A stretch of 60,582 bases of DNA from Candidatus Levyibacteriota bacterium (GTDB lineage Bacteria; Patescibacteriota; Microgenomatia; Levybacterales; UBA12049), in contig JAJDCH010000006.1 of NCBI GenBank assembly GCA_029260905.1, forward strand, positions 1 through 60,582. Reading direction: 5' to 3'. Position 1 is the first letter of the stretch, and the number at the start of each line of letters is the position of its first letter. Positions 11,483-55,689 of the stretch are shown here, piece after piece. The notes below the pieces were generated by a model. The model was not told the DNA's origin. It saw nothing but the letters and a program-made list of their open reading frames with translations, and did not search any database. Made by a program: the position numbers and the translations under genes.

Positions 11483-12376
11483 ATGAATAGCAACCAACTA
11501 AAAGATTTAAAACTCAAAGCCAATGAAATTCGTCGTCTTATTATCGAGGCGCTTGATGGCGCCAATCACAACACAGGCTCAGGACATACAGGCGGCCCGC
11601 TTGGCATGGCTGATGTGTTTGCCGCGCTTTATTTCAATTTCATGAAACACGATCCCCAAAATCCTGATGATCCAGATCGCGACAGGCTTCTTCTCTCCAA
11701 TGGTCATATTTGCGCAGTTCTCTACTCAAGCCTTGCTTTATCTGGCTATTTTCCAACTAGTGAGCTAAAAACATTTAGAGGTTTTGAAACACGTCTTCAG
11801 GGGCATCCTCACCGAGGCGTTCTCCCCGGTCTTGAGAACACATCAGGACCACTTGGTGAGGGACTTTCTCAAGCAATTGGCATTGCTCTTGCACGAGACA
11901 TTGATAAAAAGACCTACACTGTTTACTGCGCAACATCTGACGGTGAACACCAGGAGGGAAACATCTGGGAAGCTGTGATGCTTGCAGGCAAATTAAAAAT
12001 CAATAACCTAATTCAAATAATTGACTTTAACAACATCCAGATTGATGGACCGGTTGATAAGACCATGCCGCTTGAGCCTTTCCGCGCAAAATATGAATCA
12101 TTCAATTGGCATGTGATTGATATTGATGGCAATGATATGAAAGAGATAGTTGATGCAATCAGTCAAGCAAAGGAAATAAAAGACAAACCTGTTATCATAA
12201 TTGCGCGTACTATCCCTGGTAAGGGAGTCAGCTTTATGGAGGGTGATTACAGATGGCATGGGATGCCACCTGGCCTCAAAGATGTAAGCGGCGCGCCGCC
12301 AAAAGACGAACAGGTAGCAGTCGCATTTAAAGAGATTGAAGAAGAACGGAAAAAAATTATAATGGGGAAAGCGTGA
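11483..12376 (+). CDS. tktA: Transketolase, N-terminal (TPP-binding) subunit
   Basis: SGHTGGPLG, DRDRLLLSNGH, LQGHP, SGPLGEGLS, SDGEHQEG, NNIQIDG. Confidence 0.95.
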   Translation: MNSNQLKDLKLKANEIRRLIIEALDGANHNTGSGHTGGPLGMADVFAALYFNFMKHDPQNPDDPDRDRLLLSNGHICAVLYSSLALSGYFPTSELKTFRGFETRLQGHPHRGVLPGLENTSGPLGEGLSQAIGIALARDIDKKTYTVYCATSDGEHQEGNIWEAVMLAGKLKINNLIQIIDFNNIQIDGPVDKTMPLEPFRAKYESFNWHVIDIDGNDMKEIVDAISQAKEIKDKPVIIIARTIPGKGVSFMEGDYRWHGMPPGLKDVSGAPPKDEQVAVAFKEIEEERKKIIMGKA

Positions 12377-12782
12377 AGGGTGAAGGGTAAAGATAAAATA
12401 GATGGTAAAATCATATAAAGAACTCATTGTTTGGAAAAAATCAATGGAGATGGTAAGATTTATTTATCAACTAACAGAAAGCTTTCCAAAAGACGAGCTA
12501 TATGGTTTACGGTCTCAGATGGAAAGATCTGCTGTTGCAATCCCAAGCAATATTGCAGAGGGATATTTGAGACGACATCGCAAAGAGTATGTTCAGTTTT
12601 TATCAATATCCCTCAGCTCTGCAGCTGAACTTGAAACACAAATTCTTGTTTGTAAATCATTAAAAAAGTTTAAACATATAGATTTTTCTGAAACAGAATC
12701 ATTACTAAATGAGGTATTAAAAATGTTATTTGTTATGATAAATAAGATGGCTTGACGCTTAACCCTTAACGCTTTACGCTTA
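12368..12782. mobile_element. Four-helix-bundle gene enclosed by inverted heptamer arrays (full element)
   Basis: Left arm AAAGCGT-GAAGGGT-GAAGGGT-AAAG (12368-12392, contains the tktA stop); right arm CTTG-ACGCTTA-ACCCTTA-ACGCTTT-ACGCTT (12751-12782) is its near reverse complement. Mobility is inferred. Confidence 0.65.
12402..12755 (+). CDS. Four-helix-bundle protein (23S rRNA IVP / TIGR02436 family)
   Basis: SYKELIVWKKS, FPKDELYGLRSQMERSAVAIPSNIAEG, SAAELETQ signature. Confidence 0.92.
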   Translation: MVKSYKELIVWKKSMEMVRFIYQLTESFPKDELYGLRSQMERSAVAIPSNIAEGYLRRHRKEYVQFLSISLSSAAELETQILVCKSLKKFKHIDFSETESLLNEVLKMLFVMINKMA

Positions 12783-12785
12783 AAT

Positions 12786-13778
12786 ATGTTAAATCCAAAC
12801 TTAAAACTAAATACAAAATTATTTGACGTAGACGTTGAAAAAAAACCAACCCGCGCAGGCTTTGGCACAGGCCTTCTTGCTCTTGGCAAAAAAGACAAAA
12901 ATGTAGTCGGGCTTTGTGCTGATCTCACAGAGTCAACCCAAATGAACCTTTTTGCTGATGCATTTCCTGAGAGATTTTTCCAAGTCGGTGTTGCTGAGCA
13001 AAATATGGCAGCAGTTGCAGCAGGACTAGGAGTTACTGGCAAAACAGCTTTTATTTCCAGTTATGCTACTTTCTCCCCTGGTAAAAATTGGGAAACAATC
13101 AGAACCACAATTGTTTACAACAAAGCAAATGTCAAAATAGCAGGCCATCATTCAGGAATCATGACAGGTCCTGATGGAGCAACTCACCAAGCAACTGAGG
13201 ATATAGCCATAACACGCTGCTGGCCGGGTATTGAAGTATATGTTCCATGTGATGCAATTGAAGCAGAAAAAGCAACTATTGCGTCTGCTAAAACACAAAA
13301 ACCAGTTTATCTTCGCTACTCAAGAGACAAAACTCCGCTAATCACAACTGCAGATACACCTTTTGAGGTAGGCAAACTACAGGACTTCTGGGTCAGTGAA
13401 AATCCGCAAGTAACTATCTTTGCAACAGGCTATATGCTTTACTATGCATTAGTTGCCGCAAAAGAGCTTGAAGATGAAGGCATAAATACAATAGCTGTAA
13501 ATGTCGCAACCATTAAACCACTTGACTCAAATGAAGTTCTCAAATTTACCAATCAAACAAGCGCTGTTGTAACAGTTGAAGATCATCAAATAACAGGCGG
13601 CATGGGCAGTGCAATTGCTGAATCTCTGGCCAAAACCAATCCCCTGCCGATTGAGTTTGTCGGCATGCAAGACGTATTTGGCGAAACAGGAACACCAGCC
13701 CAACTCTTAAAGAAATACAAAATGAATCCTGAAGCAATCAAAGAAGCTGTAAAAAGAGTGATACGTAGAAAGCGTTAA
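12786..13778 (+). CDS. tktB: Transketolase, C-terminal subunit
   Basis: TRAGFG, ADLTES, GVAEQNM, GPDGATHQ, PVYLR, IKPLD, VEDH, GMGSAIAE. Confidence 0.95.
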   Translation: MLNPNLKLNTKLFDVDVEKKPTRAGFGTGLLALGKKDKNVVGLCADLTESTQMNLFADAFPERFFQVGVAEQNMAAVAAGLGVTGKTAFISSYATFSPGKNWETIRTTIVYNKANVKIAGHHSGIMTGPDGATHQATEDIAITRCWPGIEVYVPCDAIEAEKATIASAKTQKPVYLRYSRDKTPLITTADTPFEVGKLQDFWVSENPQVTIFATGYMLYYALVAAKELEDEGINTIAVNVATIKPLDSNEVLKFTNQTSAVVTVEDHQITGGMGSAIAESLAKTNPLPIEFVGMQDVFGETGTPAQLLKKYKMNPEAIKEAVKRVIRRKR

Positions 13779-13840
13779 GGGTAAAGCGTCAAGGGTGAAG
13801 TTTTTTTCTTTCCCCTTAGCGCTTAGCGCTTTCCCCTTAA
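13769..13840. repeat. Empty inverted heptamer-array hairpin (AAAGCGT/AAGGGT class)
   Basis: AAAGCGT-TAAGGGT-AAAGCGT-CAAGGGT-GAAG, T7 loop, CTTT-CCCCTTA-GCGCTTA-GCGCTTT-CCCCTTA. Confidence 0.85.
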
Positions 13841-13845
13841 ATATT

Positions 13846-15501
13846 ATGGATCAAAACCTGCTCACAGAATTAAAAGAACTTATCTCAGGTGATGTGGAAA
13901 CATCAGAAGAGGTACTAAGCAAATATTCACACGACGCAAGTATTTTTGAGATACGTCCTCAAGTCGTTGTCTTCCCCAAAACAGATGCCGACATCCAAAA
14001 TCTCATAAAATTCGTTGCCAAACACAAAAAAGAACACCCAGATCTCAATATCACAGCACGGGCTGCCAGCACCTGCATGTCAGGAGGAGGACTTGGCACA
14101 TCAATTATTGTTGCTTTCCAGAAATATTTTAACCATCAGCCAAAAATTGTGGGCAAAATAGCCTCAACTCAGCCTGGTGTTTTTTATCGTGATTTTGAGA
14201 AAGAAACCCTCAAACATGATCTAATTTTTCCCTCTTTCCCCTCCTCCCGTGAGATTTGCGCAATGGGCGGAATTGTCAATAACAACGCAGGCGGTGAAAA
14301 ATCTCTAGAGTATGGCAAAACTGAAGATTATATCCATTCACTACAAATGATCCTTGCTGATGGTAATGAATACGAAATAAAACCACTAAACAAAAATCAG
14401 CTTGAAGAAAAAATGGCGCAAGATAACTTTGAAGGCATAGTTTATAAAAAAACCTACGAACTTATAACTAATAACTTAGAGCTTATAACCAAAGCCAAGC
14501 CAAAGGTTAGCAAAAACTCAAGCGGCTATTTCCTCTGGAATGTCTGGGATCCTGAAAAAAAGGTCTTTGATCTTTGTAAATTATTTACCGGCGCGCAGGG
14601 AACTCTAGGCATCATGACTGAGGCTAAGCTCAAACTCGTGTCAACCAAAAAACACCGTGAAATGATGATTATTTTTCTTCATGACTTCAAACACTTAGCA
14701 GAAATCATCAATAAAGTCTTGCCTCTTGAACCTGAAAGTTTTGAGGCTTACGATGACAAAACGCTTAAGCTTGCTCTCAAATTCTTTCCCGCATTTTCCA
14801 AAAAACTTGGCACCAGATCTGTTCTGACAACTGCGCTCGAATTTTTGCCTGAAATGCAAATGTACAAAGATCACAAACTCCCCAAGCTCGTCATGCAAAT
14901 TGATTTTGCTGATGATCACCTATCAGTTCTTAAAGAGAAAATAAATGATCTGACTGAGAAACTCCAATCAATTCATCCGAATGATGTCAAAGTAGCAATT
15001 GATACTGAAGAAAAAAAATACTGGCTGATCAGACGAGACAGCTTCGGCCTTCTGAGAAAACACGTTGAGAATATGTATTCTTCCCCTTTTATTGATGACA
15101 TCGTTGTTAATCCTGAACATCTGCCTGAGTTTTTACCACAATTTAATCAGATTTTGGATAAATATCCATCTGTAATTGGCACTTTTGCAGGACACGTCGG
15201 AAACGGCAATTTTCACTTTATCCCGCTTGTCGATCTCAAAGATCCCAAAGAACAAAAACTAATTCCCCAAATCTGTGATGAAGTTTTTAAGCTTGTCATC
15301 AAATACGGTGGCTCAACATCTGGCGAGCATAATGATGGCTGGATAAGAACACCTTTTATGAAATATCAGTTTGATGAGAAGATCCTAAAGCTTTTTGAGG
15401 AAACCAAAAATATTTTTGATCCAGATGGGATATTTAACCCACACAAAAAAGTCAACGGAGATCTGGATTTTGCTATGAAGCATGTAAGAACTAGTTGGTA
15501 G
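13846..15501 (+). CDS. FAD-binding oxidoreductase (GlcD/D-lactate dehydrogenase-like)
   Basis: YSHDASIF, PQVVVFP, MGGIVNNNAGG, GAQGTLG, GHVGNGNFH, GEHNDG, DPDGIFNP. Start at ATG 13846 after the hairpin. Confidence 0.88.
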   Translation: MDQNLLTELKELISGDVETSEEVLSKYSHDASIFEIRPQVVVFPKTDADIQNLIKFVAKHKKEHPDLNITARAASTCMSGGGLGTSIIVAFQKYFNHQPKIVGKIASTQPGVFYRDFEKETLKHDLIFPSFPSSREICAMGGIVNNNAGGEKSLEYGKTEDYIHSLQMILADGNEYEIKPLNKNQLEEKMAQDNFEGIVYKKTYELITNNLELITKAKPKVSKNSSGYFLWNVWDPEKKVFDLCKLFTGAQGTLGIMTEAKLKLVSTKKHREMMIIFLHDFKHLAEIINKVLPLEPESFEAYDDKTLKLALKFFPAFSKKLGTRSVLTTALEFLPEMQMYKDHKLPKLVMQIDFADDHLSVLKEKINDLTEKLQSIHPNDVKVAIDTEEKKYWLIRRDSFGLLRKHVENMYSSPFIDDIVVNPEHLPEFLPQFNQILDKYPSVIGTFAGHVGNGNFHFIPLVDLKDPKEQKLIPQICDEVFKLVIKYGGSTSGEHNDGWIRTPFMKYQFDEKILKLFEETKNIFDPDGIFNPHKKVNGDLDFAMKHVRTSW

Positions 15502-29878: not shown

Positions 29879-30487
29879 TTAATACTCACTTCTCCCACTT
29901 AACGCCTGGTCAAGAGTCGTGCTGTCAGCGTATTCTATATCTGCACCTGTCGGCAAACCTCTACCGATTCGCGTAATTTTAAGTTCTTGGTTCAAGGTTT
30001 TGAGTTGTTTCGAAAGAAACATAGCTGTTGCCTCACCCTCCATCGTCGGATTCGTAGCCAGGATAATCTCGCGGATTTCTGATTCTTGGTTCTTGATTCT
30101 CTCCATCAATTCGCTGATCCTTATCTCCTCCGGCCCGATATTATTCAGCGGATCAATCCTCCCATGAAGCACGTGATAGACTCCTTTGTATTTTCCTGAC
30201 TTTTCAATTGCCAGTACGTCTAGGGGCTCCTCCAGAACACAAATCATCGTCCTATCCCGTCTTTCATCACTGCAAATACTGCATGGATCTGTTTCATCAA
30301 TTGCTTGACAAACTGAACAAATAACTGTATCGATCTTTAGTTTTTGGATTGAGGAAGCGAATTTATCAAGCTCGCCCTGTGGAACATGCAAAAGATAAAA
30401 AGTAAGCCTTTGGGCTGACTTTGGACCCACGCCAGGAAGACGTTCAAAACTTTCAACTAGATTGGTAATAGCTTTTGGTATACGCAT
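29879..30487 (-). CDS. recR: Recombination mediator RecR
   Basis: LPGVGPKSAQRL, C4 zinc finger, YHVLHG, EIILATNPTMEGEATA, TRIGRGLPTG. Confidence 0.97.
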   Translation of the reverse strand: MRIPKAITNLVESFERLPGVGPKSAQRLTFYLLHVPQGELDKFASSIQKLKIDTVICSVCQAIDETDPCSICSDERRDRTMICVLEEPLDVLAIEKSGKYKGVYHVLHGRIDPLNNIGPEEIRISELMERIKNQESEIREIILATNPTMEGEATAMFLSKQLKTLNQELKITRIGRGLPTGADIEYADSTTLDQALSGRSEY

Positions 30488-32697: not shown

Positions 32698-32780
32698 GTA
32701 ATCAACAAATCATCTAACTCCAAATCAACTAATAATCCACTTAATCAAATTTGTTTATTAGTTGATTTACTACTTCTTGA
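32698..32780. repeat. Empty inverted octamer-array hairpin
   Basis: Perfect 14-bp IR AAATCAACTAATAA (32722-32735) / TTATTAGTTGATTT (32755-32768) inside 8-mer periodic arms. Confidence 0.8.
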
Positions 32781-33096: not shown

Positions 33097-34641
33097 CTAT
33101 TTCAATTCTACAACAATATCTACACTATTTCCAGTAAGCATTTTCGCAGCTCTTGAAAGACTTTCCTGCACTTTTACATCATCTAGTCTTTCTTTGTGAA
33201 ATTTAAATTTTGATTCAATTAAAAGCATTTTTTTATCATAACTTTTTAATCTGCAACCCCGCAAGACTCCTGCAATTGTATGATTGTGATTTTTCATTTC
33301 ATCTATTAGACTATTCCAGAGAGTATCAAGCCACTCAGGTGTTATCTCAGAGCTTGATGTATGCATTAACTCAATTGAAGGCTTGGTATTTACCTTTTCA
33401 GTATTTGTTGCTTTTTTAGAAATGGATCCATTTATGGCATTTTCCTTTGCGATATTACCAATCTTTTTTTTAAAATCTCCTATATTGCCAGTACCGTATT
33501 TTGACTGACTTTTAACCCCTTCTACTCCTTTATCAACTTCCAAATTTTCAGCTGTTGCTTCACGTGTTTTTATAGAATACTCAATCACTGCAAGCTCCAG
33601 CGGAAGCTGTGGAAGAACTGAGTATTTCATCTCCTGATATGATTTTGAGAGAATATCAAAAAGCAAAGCAATCTCAGCTATTTCAAAATTAGCACCAGGT
33701 ATTTCAAATACCTCTTGGGTTGCATTTGTTTTGGAGAGAAGAAGTTTGTGGAGCGTTTCTATAACCTGCTGCAAAAAATATCTAAAATCAATTCCCGTTT
33801 CAGTTAATTTTGAAATTGTTTTCATGCCTTCCCCACTATCTTTTTTATAAAGTGAAGCAAGAAGCGCTATAACATAATGATTTATACTTGTAACTCTGTA
33901 TTTTTCCTCAATCATTTCTCCTGTTATCTTCTTGCCGTTTGACTGCATCACAATCTCCTCCAATATCTTTGTCCCATCCCTAAATCCGCCATCCGACAAA
34001 TGAGCAATTGATAAAAGAGCCTCATCATCAATAGCAACCCTCTCGCCTTTTGTTATACGTTTGAATGAACGAATCAGCTCCATGTCAGTTGCCAAATGAA
34101 AAGAAATATGAAAACATCGCGATACAATTGTTGATGGAACTTTTTCAAGAGCGGTCGTACAAAGTATAAATATGGCATGATTCGGTGGCTCTTCAAGTGT
34201 CTTAAGAAGTGCATTAAATGCCTCAGTTGTTAGCATATGAACCTCATCTATTATATAGACCTTCTTGCTTGCGGAAATAGGCGAAAGCCCAATTTTTTCC
34301 TTTAGATCACGTATCTCATCTATCCCCCTATTACTTGCCCCATCTATCTCCAGAATATCCATATTTGTTCCTTCAGTAATTGATAGACATTGATCACATT
34401 TATTACAAGGCTCTATTTCCCTCCCCTTTACGCTTTCCCCCTTACGCTTTTTGTCAGTACAATTAAGGACTTTAGCTACAATTCTGGCTGTTGATGTTTT
34501 ACCAAGACCCTTTGGGCCTGTGAAGAGAAATGCATGCGGAGTATTTTCCTGATTTTTTAGAACCGATAAAAGACTTTCCCTTACCTTTTCACTATCTAAA
34601 TCATCAATAATCTGTGGTCTGTATTTTCTATAAAAAACCAT
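33097..34641 (-). CDS. dnaX: DNA polymerase III subunit gamma/tau
   Basis: FYRKYRPQ, GPKGLGKTS, EIDGASNRGID, IIDEVHML, FNALLKTLEEPP, TIVSRC. Confidence 0.97.
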   Translation of the reverse strand: MVFYRKYRPQIIDDLDSEKVRESLLSVLKNQENTPHAFLFTGPKGLGKTSTARIVAKVLNCTDKKRKGESVKGREIEPCNKCDQCLSITEGTNMDILEIDGASNRGIDEIRDLKEKIGLSPISASKKVYIIDEVHMLTTEAFNALLKTLEEPPNHAIFILCTTALEKVPSTIVSRCFHISFHLATDMELIRSFKRITKGERVAIDDEALLSIAHLSDGGFRDGTKILEEIVMQSNGKKITGEMIEEKYRVTSINHYVIALLASLYKKDSGEGMKTISKLTETGIDFRYFLQQVIETLHKLLLSKTNATQEVFEIPGANFEIAEIALLFDILSKSYQEMKYSVLPQLPLELAVIEYSIKTREATAENLEVDKGVEGVKSQSKYGTGNIGDFKKKIGNIAKENAINGSISKKATNTEKVNTKPSIELMHTSSSEITPEWLDTLWNSLIDEMKNHNHTIAGVLRGCRLKSYDKKMLLIESKFKFHKERLDDVKVQESLSRAAKMLTGNSVDIVVELK

Positions 34642-34661
34642 ACTTCTCCTTTCAGTCGAAG

Positions 34662-36880: not shown

Positions 36881-36931
36881 TAATAAACCAATCAACTAAT
36901 TATCCAATGCAATTTGTTTATTAGTTGATTA
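36881..36931. repeat. Empty inverted octamer-array hairpin
   Basis: AATAAACC-AATCAACTAAT ... ATTTGTTT-ATTAGTTGATT. Confidence 0.8.
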
Positions 36932-38697: not shown

Positions 38698-40440
38698 TTA
38701 CTTCTTAATTTTTTGAAGTATCTCGTCAAAACTCAGAAGCTTGGATTCTTTCTCAGTTCGTTTTTTAAATTCAATCTTTTCCCCTGCTTGCCCTGAGCCA
38801 TGCTGAAGGGTCTTTTCACTTACCACCAAACGCACAGGAATTCCGATCAAATCTGCATCTGCAAATTTGTTGCCAACTGATACCTCCCGGTCATCATACA
38901 AAACCTCTACTCCCACATCCTGCAATTTTTCGTAAATTTCATCTCCAAAATTTTTAACTTTTGAATTGTCATTTTGAGTTTTGACTTTTGAATTTTGAAT
39001 TATAATCAGATGCACATCAAACGGCGCAATTGACTCAGGCCAGATAATACCACGATCATCATTGCTTACCTCAACCACCGCAGCCAGTGTCCTCCCAATT
39101 CCTATTCCGTAGCAACCCATATAGTAAGGCTTTTCCGATCCATCTTCATCGATAAAAGTAGCGCCTTTCATTTTTTTACTGTAATGATATCCAAGCTGGA
39201 AAATATTTCCAACTTCAATTCCTCGGAATACCTCGTAAGGTTCGCCTGTTTCAGGATAGAGATCTCCTGCTCTGGTTTCTTTAAAGTCATAAAATTTTTC
39301 AGGTAGTGGCAAGTCCCGCTCAAAGTTTACATTTATTACATGGACGTCTGTTTTATTTGATCCCATTTCAAAATTAACTCTTCCTCTCATTGAATCATCC
39401 AGAAACACTTTCACCTCTTTTGGTAGATTGAGAATTCCTGCATATCCGACCTCTGCCCCGGTCAGCTCCTTAATTTTCTCAGACGCAATCAATGTCAAGC
39501 TCTGACAGCCAATGATTCTTTTAAGTTTTATTTCATCAATATCGTATTCTCCACGCAGTGCTGCTGCGATAACATCTCCTTTTTCTGTTTCAAAAAGAAT
39601 TGTTTTTGTCGTTTTCTCAACTGGAATATTTAAGAATTTTGCCAGTGCCTCAACTCCGATAATTCCTTTTCCAACAACATCCTCCATTGGTTTTGGCTCT
39701 TCCCCTTTCTGGTCAAATGGTGTTGCCATGGTTGGTGCAATTTCTTTATTAAAATACATCTTTTTCGATGGAACATAAAAAATAGTATCCTCTCCTGCAT
39801 TTGATTTGACCTGAAATTCGTGCGCATAATCCCCACCTATGTCACCATTGTCTGCACCCACCATGAATGTATTAAGTCCGACTCGCTCAAATATTTTTGT
39901 GTAAGTTTTTGACATTTTTTCATATTCTTTCTTAAAATCATCCTCTGATGCGTGAAATGAATATCCATCTTTCATGATAAACTCCCTAACCCTCAGAAGT
40001 CCCCCTCGAGCTCTTAGCTCGTCTCGGAATTTGGAAGCAAACTGATAAAGCTGAAAAGGCAAATCTTTATAGCTAATTTGAAACTTACGAACCAAATCAA
40101 CAAGCATTTCCTCAGCCGTCCCGCCGAGAACAAATTCCATATCACGTCGGTCTTTTATTTTAAGTAGGCCAAAATCAGCCTTGTCACGGTTGGTTTCTTT
40201 CCACAAATCAAGCGGATGGAGAATTGGAACGAGGATTTCCTGGGCACCTGCTCTATCCATTTCTTCTTTAACTACTTTTATAATTTTCTGCTGCACTCTC
40301 TGTCCTAGAGGCAGGAAATAATATCTTCCCGCTGTACTTTCCCTTATAAATCCTGCTTGATACAAAAGCTGATGCGATTTCAGAGTTGCATCTTTTGGTA
40401 TGTCTTTAATTGTCTTTCCAAAAAGGTGTGAATATTTCAT
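38698..40440 (-). CDS. proS: Proline--tRNA ligase (bacterial type with editing domain)
   Basis: SHQLLYQAGFI, FRDELRARGGLLRVREFIMKDGYSF, GIEVGNIFQLG, MGCYGIGIGR. Confidence 0.96.
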   Translation of the reverse strand: MKYSHLFGKTIKDIPKDATLKSHQLLYQAGFIRESTAGRYYFLPLGQRVQQKIIKVVKEEMDRAGAQEILVPILHPLDLWKETNRDKADFGLLKIKDRRDMEFVLGGTAEEMLVDLVRKFQISYKDLPFQLYQFASKFRDELRARGGLLRVREFIMKDGYSFHASEDDFKKEYEKMSKTYTKIFERVGLNTFMVGADNGDIGGDYAHEFQVKSNAGEDTIFYVPSKKMYFNKEIAPTMATPFDQKGEEPKPMEDVVGKGIIGVEALAKFLNIPVEKTTKTILFETEKGDVIAAALRGEYDIDEIKLKRIIGCQSLTLIASEKIKELTGAEVGYAGILNLPKEVKVFLDDSMRGRVNFEMGSNKTDVHVINVNFERDLPLPEKFYDFKETRAGDLYPETGEPYEVFRGIEVGNIFQLGYHYSKKMKGATFIDEDGSEKPYYMGCYGIGIGRTLAAVVEVSNDDRGIIWPESIAPFDVHLIIIQNSKVKTQNDNSKVKNFGDEIYEKLQDVGVEVLYDDREVSVGNKFADADLIGIPVRLVVSEKTLQHGSGQAGEKIEFKKRTEKESKLLSFDEILQKIKK

Positions 40441-51800: not shown

Positions 51801-52795
51801 TTATTTTTTATTTTTGGGTCTTCTCTTCTCTCCTGCCTTAAGCTTTGGTAAAGGGTCATAATATCCGCCGGCCACAGTCAGCTCTGCCTTGATAGTCGGG
51901 TGTGGTTCGTAGCCGATCAACTCAACGTGTTCGGGTCGAAAATCTGACAAACCCTTGAATTTGCCAAGTTTTAGCTTTGGAAAAGACTTTGGTTTTCTTT
52001 TCAGCTGCTCTTTAACTTGTGCTACATGATTTTCATAAATATGCGCATCACCATATGTATGGATAAACTCCCCGGGTTTATAACCCAAGATTTTGGCAAG
52101 TATCACAGCAAGAAGTGAATAACTGCCGATATTAAAAGGCACACCAAGAAACATATCACAACTTCTCTGATACAGATGCAGCGACAACTTGTTGTCTTTG
52201 ACACTTACCTGATACATATTGTGACAAATTGGAAAATATGATGTCTCATCTTTCTCCGCCATACTGTAGAGATATTCAGGATTCCAGCTGTTAACTATTG
52301 CGTTTCTGGCATCAGGGTCTTCACTCAATTCTTTAATTACCCATGAGAGCTGATCAATTGTCTTCCCTTTTTTCCTTGTCGGCCATCTCCTCCACATCTC
52401 TCCATAAATACGCGGCAGCTCTCCCCATTTCTTGGCAAACTTCGCATCTGTCCTAATCTTTTCTATAAACTCCTCTTTTGTCAGCTTTTTGCTTTTTGCT
52501 TTTTGCTATATATCTTATATGGGTAGTCATCCCAGATGTGGACATTGTTATCAACTAGATATTTGATGTTGGAGTTACCTGACAAGAACCAATACAGCTC
52601 CTTGAGAACTCCGTTCCAGTACACTCTTTTGGTTGTCAAAAGCGGAAAACTTTCTGACAAATCATACCTAGACTGTCTACCAAAAACGCTGTATGATTTG
52701 ACCCCAGTCCCTCGATCTACATTGACAACTCCATTTTTGAGGATGTCTTTGAGAAGATCTAAATATTGATGCTCTTGATGTTTGTCTCCTGCCAT
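51801..52795 (-). pseudogene. thyA: Thymidylate synthase split by a frameshift in a (GCAAAAA)3 repeat
   Basis: N-part: QYLDLL, DRGTG, FPLLTTKRV, ELYWFLSG, IWDDY. C-part in another frame: LTKEEFIEK...WGELPRIYG, PICH, QRSCDMFLGVPFN, DAHIYENH. Confidence 0.85.
52486..52506. repeat. Perfect heptamer tandem repeat (TTTTTGC)3
   Basis: Read directly at the thyA frame break. Confidence 0.9.
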
Positions 52796-55593: not shown

Positions 55594-55689
55594 AATCAAC
55601 TAATTTCCAATTAACCAATCATCTAATTATAAACCCTCAAAATGTATTGTTTAATTTGTTGATTGGTTTATTAGATGATTTGTTTATTA
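55594..55689. repeat. Empty inverted octamer-array hairpin
   Basis: AATCAACT-AATTTCC-AATTAACC-AATCATCT-AAT versus ATTGTTTA-ATTTGTTG-ATTGGTTT-ATTAGATG-ATTTGTTT-ATT. Confidence 0.85.

Follow-up and report, generated by a model that had tools for sequence, protein, structure and literature searches.

An in-frame heptamer array in the zinc module of a patescibacterial DnaX, probably a fragment of a dispersed hairpin family

We analyzed a 60,582-nucleotide (nt) contig from a Candidatus Levyibacteriota bacterium (JAJDCH010000006.1 of assembly GCA_029260905.1, here called the window) and found that its dnaX gene, encoding the gamma/tau subunit of DNA polymerase III, holds an array of 7-nt units in frame between the codons for the first and second zinc-binding cysteines. 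The array shares its units with a family of hairpins elsewhere in the window, two of whose arms flank a PF05635 gene in an arrangement like that of the intervening sequences (IVSs) of 23S rRNA. The array is probably a translated one-arm fragment of this dispersed, IVS-like family of heptamer-arm hairpins, tolerated in an exposed DnaX loop without any need of function.

The host gene was identified as dnaX. Its 514-residue open reading frame (ORF; 33097..34641, minus strand) scored 339 bits against TIGR02397 (cut-off, 250), and the E. coli gamma/tau structures matched it with an E value of 1e-49, all four cysteines that serve as zinc ligands being aligned. The product has the N-terminal AAA+ clamp-loader module, the Walker A motif, and the four-Cys zinc module of the family, with a spacing between the first two cysteines of x17 and not x8, and the gene lies in an order (ybeY-dnaX-ybaB-prs-...-recR) common to the window and its relatives. 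A first-pass annotation made from the DNA alone had placed the array between the first Cys and PCxxC and had called the E. coli loop (CETGITATPC) shorter. Rereading the minus strand confirmed its sequence, coordinates, and frame: from 34450 to 34416 the strand reads AAAGCGTAAGGGGGAAAGCGTAAAGGGGAGGGAAA, that is, the units AAAGCGT, AAGGGGG, AAAGCGT, AAAGGGG, and AGGGAAA (35 nt). Positions 34452-34417 encode K64, K65, R66, K67, G68, E69, S70, V71, K72, G73, R74, and E75 in the context CTDKKRKGESVKGREIEPCNKCDQC. The codon for C61 lies at 34461-34459 and that for C79 at 34407-34405, followed by those for C82 and C85, so that the array sits between zinc ligands 1 and 2. When E. coli gamma was aligned, a 9-residue gap faced the window residues dkkrkgesv, which confirmed the shorter loop. 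The insert is basic, with 4 Lys and 2 Arg among the 12 residues from K64 to E75.

It is the DNA that repeats here, not the peptide. Tandem Repeats Finder (TRF) reported a period of 14, 2.1 copies, 93% matches, and a score of 51, but the reading frame differs between the two 14-nt copies, the first being AAG CGT AAG GGG (KRKG) and the second (GA)A AGC GTA AAG GGG ((E)SVKG). Peptide repetition therefore cannot explain the DNA repetition. Two other features of this DNA were considered and rejected: a frameshift site (C AAA AAG, codons 63 to 65), which would truncate the protein at about 70 residues, and a G-quadruplex, for which the window array has only three G-tracts. In the corresponding loop of a relative, at L088:926-955 in locus coordinates (L numbers denote the DnaX and PF05635 loci that we collected), the array (GGGGAAA)x4 contains four such tracts and conforms to a G-quadruplex motif.

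An intergenic repeat might have been placed in dnaX by misassembly or a chimeric join, and the coverage of this organism is low in its public data, which comprise contigs from three runs of one study (about 6x, 3x, and 2.5x). However, contigs from all three independent runs cover 34326-34604 and agree with the window at every position, and the array is thus no assembly artifact. The ORF is also intact and in frame, and the same phenomenon is present in dozens of independent assemblies. We regard an artifact as extremely improbable.

The array has close kin elsewhere in the window. With up to two mismatches allowed, the 13-mer AAAGCGTAAGGGG has 10 matches in the window, compared with an expectation of 0.92, and none of 100 shuffled sequences reached 10. 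Five of its eight nonself matches sit in three intergenic arrays, and a scan of the 60 kb for the units found those three and the dnaX array only: 12364-12392; 12750-12784, on the opposite strand; and 13769-13840 (Table 1). We refer to these as the A family. The first-pass annotation had matched the dnaX units to the arms at 13769-13840 and had called the array transketolase class. The match is real but imperfect (23 of 28 positions over four units; 85% over 27 nt by blastn), and the label did not survive: the arms belong to a family of PF05635 cassettes that is not specific to transketolase.

Table 1. Features of the dnaX array and of the A-family repeats in the window
Feature	Position	Strand	Remarks
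Upstream cassette arm	12364..12392	+	GGGGAAAGCGTGAAGGGTGAAGGGTAAAG; includes the transketolase N-terminal subunit stop codon (12374-12376); directly adjoins the start of the cargo gene
Cargo gene	12402..12755	+	PF05635 23S_rRNA_IVP / TIGR02436 four-helix-bundle protein (Avd-like), 117 aa; E 6e-36
Downstream cassette arm	12750..12784	+	GCTTGACGCTTAACCCTTAACGCTTTACGCTTAAA; complementary to the upstream arm; holds the cargo stop codon; stops 1 nt short of the transketolase C-terminal subunit ATG
Gene-less "solo" hairpin, A family	13768..13840	+	-28.7 kcal/mol, z -3.6; 0/200 shuffles fold as well
dnaX (DNA polymerase III gamma/tau), host gene	33097..34641	-	514-aa ORF; TIGR02397, 339 bits
In-frame heptamer array	34416..34452	-	5 units / 2.1 copies of a 14-mer; K64-E75 = KKRKGESVKGRE; one arm of an A-family repeat (units AAGCGT / AAGGGG)
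DnaX zinc module	34387..34461	-	C61-x17-C79-x2-C82-x2-C85; Cys1-Cys2 loop of 17 residues

Two of the intergenic arrays are the ends of a cassette, 12364-12784, lodged exactly between the stop codon of the N-subunit gene and the start codon of the C-subunit gene of a split transketolase. When linked by an artificial loop, the two arms fold together at -26.8 kcal/mol. The cassette is an rRNA-IVS-like cassette outside rRNA; the window had no rRNA or Rfam match, and Rfam holds no family for these hairpins. The third intergenic array forms a hairpin without a gene. The transketolase C-terminal subunit gene has its stop codon in the left arm of this hairpin; the next gene, for an FAD-linked oxidase, begins with its ATG at 13846. 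There is no cargo ORF inside the dnaX array, which is at most a gene-less fragment of such a cassette.

We then looked at 39 loci from many phyla (L204-L241) that encode relatives of the window four-helix-bundle protein, 34 of which were tested. The flanks upstream and downstream of the PF05635 gene were complementary to each other in 23 of these 34 cassettes (z <= -2.7). A lag of 7 was the best period in 45 of 66 PF05635-gene flanks, against 8 of 132 control segments from the same loci, and it was the best with at least 50% self-match in 32 of the 66 flanks and in none of the 132 controls. Each lineage has its own units: Syntrophaceae have GGGTATC, Pyrinomonadaceae CGTAAAT, Omnitrophota GGGTCAA, and Patescibacteria AAGCGT/AAGGGT. 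The downstream arm typically adjoins the ATG of the next gene. The link between hairpin family and cassette was demonstrated for the A family and for PF05635-gene flanks, not for every heptamer array.

The window dnaX array matched the nearest cassette arms over 18 of 18 nt in L207 (E value of 3e-5 in 84 kb) and 18 of 19 nt in L204, with further matches in L208 and L206. Of 34 significant matches to A-family dnaX inserts, 22 fell in arm zones, which make up 7% of the DNA searched (L206:968-998 being counted as arm). Cassettes with 69 to 83% identical cargo and the same arms occupy different gene junctions in different genomes: between two transketolase subunit genes in the window, upstream of the transketolase N-subunit gene in L204, between the genes for mevalonate kinase and diphosphomevalonate decarboxylase in L206 and L207, and before a metal ATPase gene in L205. 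Such differing junctions of similar cassettes fit relocation. A gene of another kind is enclosed in a similar way at L081:6340-6840, where a GxxExxY gene (TIGR04256, PDDEXK_3) lies between recR and the next gene inside complementary flanks of about 45 nt (-34.7 kcal/mol with an artificial loop).

DnaX loci of relatives were gathered with a DNA pattern for EPCNxC[DE]QC, which superseded a whole-DnaX genome scan that had been swamped by the generic YIIDEVHM pattern and had returned distant phyla only. The closest homologs, which belong to the Microgenomates group of Patescibacteria (Levybacteria, Woesebacteria, and others), are only 51 to 58% identical to the window DnaX. Over the top 120 homologs, the spacing between the first two cysteines ranged from 8 to 56, with modes at 10 (T[GD]KKKGE[IV]EP) and 13, and 33 of the 120 had a loop of at least 17 residues (17 to 56). 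These lengths were not visibly quantized in 7-residue steps, and an argument for slippage built on such steps was dropped. Loop length over all Patescibacteria DnaX sequences sampled was 7 to 56. The spacing was 8 in all of the more than 70 non-Patescibacteria DnaX sequences found by the same pattern (Desulfovibrionaceae, Ktedonobacteria, Thermotogae, and Myxococcota among them), except for two with an extra Cys, and it is also 8 in E. coli.

Aligning the relatives' loops for length and DNA periodicity did not reveal the window loop peptide conserved over nonperiodic DNA. The nearest-state loop has 10 residues (TDKKKGEIEP or TDKKKGQIEP), and its DNA is nonperiodic, as in L171 (GAC AAA AAG AAA GGG CAG ATT GAG) and L203 (GAT AAG AAA AAA GGT GAA ATT GAG). 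The window loop is this 10-residue base state plus 7 residues (21 nt). We also read 22 long loops as DNA. Self-matching peaked at a lag of 7 or 14 in nearly every case, and the majority formed hairpins with heptamer arrays in both arms. All 22 inserts were in frame, an outcome that would be essentially impossible had they been excised ahead of translation, and we infer that the DnaX protein is made with its insert.

Two of these loops, in L081 and L165, carry the A family of the window as a left arm, a short loop, and a right arm, in frame at the same place in DnaX. The L081 hairpin contains the units AAAGGGT, AAAAGGG, AAAGTGT, and CAAGGGG on one side and three copies of CTTCACC and one of CTTAACG on the other. 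The left halves of the two hairpins resemble an upstream cassette arm (30 of 33 nt to L204) and the right halves a downstream arm (19 of 19 nt to L206); judged by sequence, the hairpins look like a cassette without its gene. Single-arm loops like that of the window were present in L088, (GGGGAAA)x4, and L090, (GTCAAAA)x5, while other lineages had unrelated units (CAATTAA/CAGTTAA, GAACAAA, CCACGAG, CGACCTC, and GCTGGAG). As a separate observation, one of the public runs (run X1, contig record 4) contains a second dnaX, roughly 85% similar and from another organism of the same biofilm, that aligns to both flanks of the zinc-loop region (window 34355-34642) and measures 168 nt where the window has 177.

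Rough neighbor-joining trees of DnaX, made with the loop masked, placed long loops in a scatter among short-loop neighbors. The DnaX proteins of L165 and L179 are 84% identical over domains I and II and carry unrelated hairpins, those of L088 (array) and L171 (base state) are 76% identical, and the four A-family carriers are not mutually nearest. This scatter, together with the unrelated inserts in similar proteins, indicates that the loop content has been repeatedly gained, replaced, or lost.

We modeled the window DnaX with AlphaFold2 from 60 homologs (mean predicted local distance difference test score [pLDDT], 83.5). The model had no secondary structure at residues 61 to 82, and the sole low-confidence patch of domain I (pLDDT of <50) was residues 68 to 72 (GESVK), between flanking blocks at 89 to 95. 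The insert is thus predicted to be a disordered excursion between zinc ligands that keep their places.

These results bear on whether the insert is adaptive, either as a basic, flexible loop that contacts the clamp loader or DNA or as an RNA or DNA motif, for instance a regulatory element of the dnaX mRNA. The insert is basic and its host protein handles DNA, a quarter of the relatives have an enlarged loop, and the full hairpins of relatives could be targets of RNase III, as IVS stems are. On the other hand, its sequence, length, charge, and repeat family are all unconserved, to the point that DnaX proteins 84% identical have unrelated inserts; 10 residues suffice in most relatives; the window array has no RNA structure; and the insert is modeled as disordered. 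A selected function appears quite improbable to us, and the array is most likely neutral or selfish.

Heptamer arrays in Patescibacteria extend well beyond the zinc loop. In 44 Patescibacteria dnaX loci (391 kb), 116 of 226 TRF arrays had a period of 7 or 14, compared with 6 of 163 in 78 loci from other bacteria and 3 of 16 in shuffled sequence. Roughly half of these Patescibacteria arrays fall within long ORFs, where homologous sites are occupied repeatedly: three further sites in DnaX, the Toprim loop of RecR, the first loop of the anticodon-binding domain of prolyl-tRNA synthetase (ProRS), and an unnamed protein of about 300 residues. The further DnaX sites are in the C-terminal half (L100, L101, L107, L111, L115, L202, and L203), for example, ...LLLVK.GV[array]..E.K.L..L and LELA..EWC[array], with peptides that include QNSEFRIQNSEL and IPNTKYQIQNTKI. 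RecR has in-frame arrays at two sites, before EVILATNPT and in EGEATAMYIAK[array]ITRIGRGLP (the Toprim loop), where they substitute for a native segment of about equal length and are not added to it (window 30080-30100, L081:6225-6254, L101:138-168, L142:3526-3557, L165:4189-4219, and L200:2965-2998). The window ProRS gene (38698..40440, minus strand) contains (NTCAAAA)x7.6 in frame at 38949-39001, read as IIQNSKVKTQNDNSKVKNF, which makes the loop 7 residues longer than in solved ProRS structures; L090 and L098 likewise carry arrays at this position. Together with the L081 and L165 hairpins, these arrays support the proposal of the first-pass annotation that repeat arms invade surface loops of essential proteins.

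The composition of the arrays inside ORFs is the pattern expected from a selective filter acting on random entry. The coding strand is purine rich in 47 of 62, hydrophilic residues make up 66% against a background of 53%, and 34 of the 62 are stop free in all three frames, while only 10 of 57 intergenic arrays are stop free on either strand. Since the unit is 7 nt, such arrays are also potential frame switches, and thyA in the window is one unit out of frame. This thymidylate synthase gene (minus strand; ORFs 52481..52795 and 51801..52397) is split by a frameshift in (GCAAAAA)x3.4 at 52484-52507, and one unit more, or two fewer, would rejoin its ORF. The public contigs stop at this array, and the split may reflect phase variation, a pseudogene, or misassembly.

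Local growth of a microsatellite offers another origin for the dnaX array: slippage in 7-nt steps from a purine-rich native seed, the likeness to the intergenic arms being a convergence from a genome-wide heptamer bias. Several results suit it. The gain in dnaX is exactly 21 nt, or three heptamers, and the window ProRS likewise gained 7 residues; the window array is tandem and has a single arm only; periods of 7 and 14 are common in Patescibacteria loci and rare elsewhere, as the counts above show; thyA has a one-heptamer offset within (GCAAAAA)n; heptamer copy number differs among strains of Coxiella (PMC4990558); and the base-state DNA, AAAAAGAAAGGG, resembles the unit. Slippage cannot by itself, however, make the inverted arms in the L081 and L165 loops, and it would not account for identities of 18/18 and 18/19 nt to the cassette arms of other genomes that include a GCGT core missing from base-state loops. 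A 14-nt duplication would also break the frame, and slippage would therefore require several coordinated steps. We consider slippage from a native seed unlikely as the whole explanation.

If the array is instead a fragment of the hairpin family, about 21 nt of arm sequence would have entered the DNA coding for the Cys1-Cys2 loop in the lineage of this genome, by insertion or by gene conversion from another copy. The native purine-rich KKKGE codons (AAA AAG AAA GGG ...) may have aided this entry, and a conversion might have been primed by microhomology between native AAAAAG/AAAGGG and the arm sequence ...AAAG CGTAAGGGGGAAAGCGT AAAGGGG. Slippage in 7-nt steps, in which only multiples of three units (+/-3) preserve the frame, might have been an alternative or additional route; insertion, gene conversion, and local slippage could each have produced the array. 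The array leaves the four cysteines and the AAA+ fold intact. The array would then have persisted because it is in frame, is stop free, has a purine-rich coding strand that encodes hydrophilic residues (Lys, Arg, Gly, Glu, and Ser), and lies in a solvent-exposed loop tolerant of length. That this loop is a "hot spot" probably owes most to selection, the site being permissive, since other permissive loops are hit too and the repeat families vary.

A number of observations weigh against an origin from the hairpin family. The window array has no complementary arm and no fold (z of +1.2, against -3.6 for 13762-13845); with a single arm and no hairpin, a hairpin origin rests on a family resemblance of about 28 nt and on relatives only 54 to 67% identical in DnaX. 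The native loop is itself A/G rich, and part of the likeness to AAGGGG-type units could be convergent. A comparison of the long dnaX inserts with their own and other loci was only moderately positive: 8 of 22 had a conspicuously similar copy in their own locus (within the top 5 of 43), the loci being about 8 kb and too short for a genome-level family test. No close relative (>60% full-length DnaX identity) showing the states before and after was found in the collections searched; of two metagenome scans for near relatives of the window loop, the first returned nothing and the second one 57%-identical base-state gene. The contigs of the three public runs had no length polymorphism at the array. 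Visual inspection of the ends of the L081 insert and of the window hairpin showed no direct repeat that would mark a target-site duplication, and no transposase or mobility enzyme was identified, the window ORFs not having been screened for transposases.

The closest known relatives of the A family in architecture are the 23S rRNA IVSs with an S23p ORF of Coxiella, Leptospira, and Xanthomonas. The 23S rRNA IVS of Coxiella burnetii has a terminal inverted-repeat stem and an S23p (PF05635) ORF, just upstream of which are tandem GACAGAT heptamers of strain-variable copy number, and RNase III cuts at the first repeat (PMC4990558). The window cassette likewise has complementary termini that form a long stem, heptamers directly upstream of a PF05635 ORF in the loop, and a site that tolerates extra material, and the five dnaX units belong to the same arm family. 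Unlike an IVS, the dnaX array has no complementary terminus, stem, or ORF; it lies in a protein-coding gene, and the cassette between protein genes, instead of in helix 25 or 45 of 23S rRNA; its sequence is read as translated and not as excised by RNase III; and its units are unrelated to GACAGAT.

The first-pass annotation had likened the outcome to that of the Rickettsia palindromic elements (RPEs). These selfish repeats are found in frame in unrelated housekeeping genes and are translated at sites that the fold tolerates; they are about 100 to 150 bp, form defined families with a conserved peptide, and occur only in Rickettsia (PMC10969869). The comparison stands in that the dnaX array is an in-frame, apparently selfish repeat at a structurally tolerant site of a conserved ORF, with full palindromes in the same loop of relatives. 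It fails for the window copy itself, which is 35 nt of a single arm, is not palindromic, and has a Patescibacterium as its host. The dnaX-loop inserts as a group also differ, being 21 to 130 nt long, with 7-nt units that are read in all three frames and are in many cases lineage specific. The two resemble each other, by analogy, in outcome and not by homology. Miniature inverted-repeat transposable elements and repetitive extragenic palindromic elements are marked by terminal inverted repeats, a target-site duplication, and a cognate transposase (IS or RAYT) in the genome; the dnaX inserts of relatives and the solo hairpin have inverted arms.

The heptanucleotide repeats of Cyanobacteria are known as short tandemly repeated repetitive sequences. 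Regulatory roles have been proposed for the TAACTGA heptanucleotide repeats of Beggiatoaceae and of Bacteroidetes and Cyanobacteria (PMC4679880). Like the arrays described here, such repeats are tandem 7-nt units, mostly intergenic, often near start codons, and with some copies in ORFs that give 7-residue repeats. One dnaX-loop family, AACAATT/AACAGTT, is found in those same phyla: the array CAATTAACARTTAACAATT, of the family in the dnaX loops of L082 and L130, occurred in at least 120 DNA stretches (L243-L362), with hosts among the matches listed in Cyanobacteria, Bacteroidota, Acidobacteriota, Planctomycetota, Parabeggiatoa, and Patescibacteria. Its unit is one base off the reverse complement of the published TAACTGA repeat. 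By a narrow PF05635 hidden Markov model, an IVP-like ORF adjoined only 3 of 120 AACAATT-type arrays from other phyla. The published reports differ in that they describe direct repeats, with no inverted pairs around PF05635 genes and no recurrent in-frame arrays in the loops of essential proteins. In Borg genomes, the length of every repeat unit within an ORF is a multiple of three, and the repeats are perfect at the amino acid level (PMC9879509). In both cases, fast-evolving nucleotide repeats in ORFs yield new disordered, hydrophilic segments, but the 7-nt unit is read in three frames, and the constraint falls on the total length alone. Full-text literature searches returned no account of heptamer arrays in Patescibacteria or of repeat insertions in the DnaX zinc loop and, outside Coxiella, no report that PF05635 genes generally have heptamer arms.

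A broader reading is possible, though we hold it to be doubtful. Heptamer-array hairpins might be the cis-acting ends of a widespread selfish cassette whose cargo is a PF05635 Avd-like protein or a GxxExxY protein. The 23S rRNA IVS would be one landing site, and gene-less derivatives would have spread in Patescibacteria and settled where they were tolerated, in rRNA helices, gene junctions, and loops of DnaX, RecR, and ProRS. Were this true, the cargo protein would recognize arrays of 7-nt units and stimulate their copying, and a running record of that activity would lie in the hypervariable zinc loop of DnaX.

Whichever route brought the repeats in, slow-evolving essential replication and translation proteins of Patescibacteria appear to harbor, in a small number of recurrently occupied loops, in-frame selfish DNA that turns over fast. 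Such arrays matter for annotation, for alignments and phylogenies of marker proteins, and for structure prediction. They would provide a second system, independent of Rickettsia, for studying how proteins absorb repeat insertions, and they bring heptanucleotide repeats, 23S rRNA intervening sequences, and the abundant, functionless "four helix bundle" (PF05635/TIGR02436) genes into one testable architecture.

The window also contains a second, A/T-rich family of intergenic hairpins (AATCAACTAATWATCC...), with copies at 32722-32768, 36890-36930, and 55606-55688 between minus-strand genes. One copy lies immediately downstream of ybaB.

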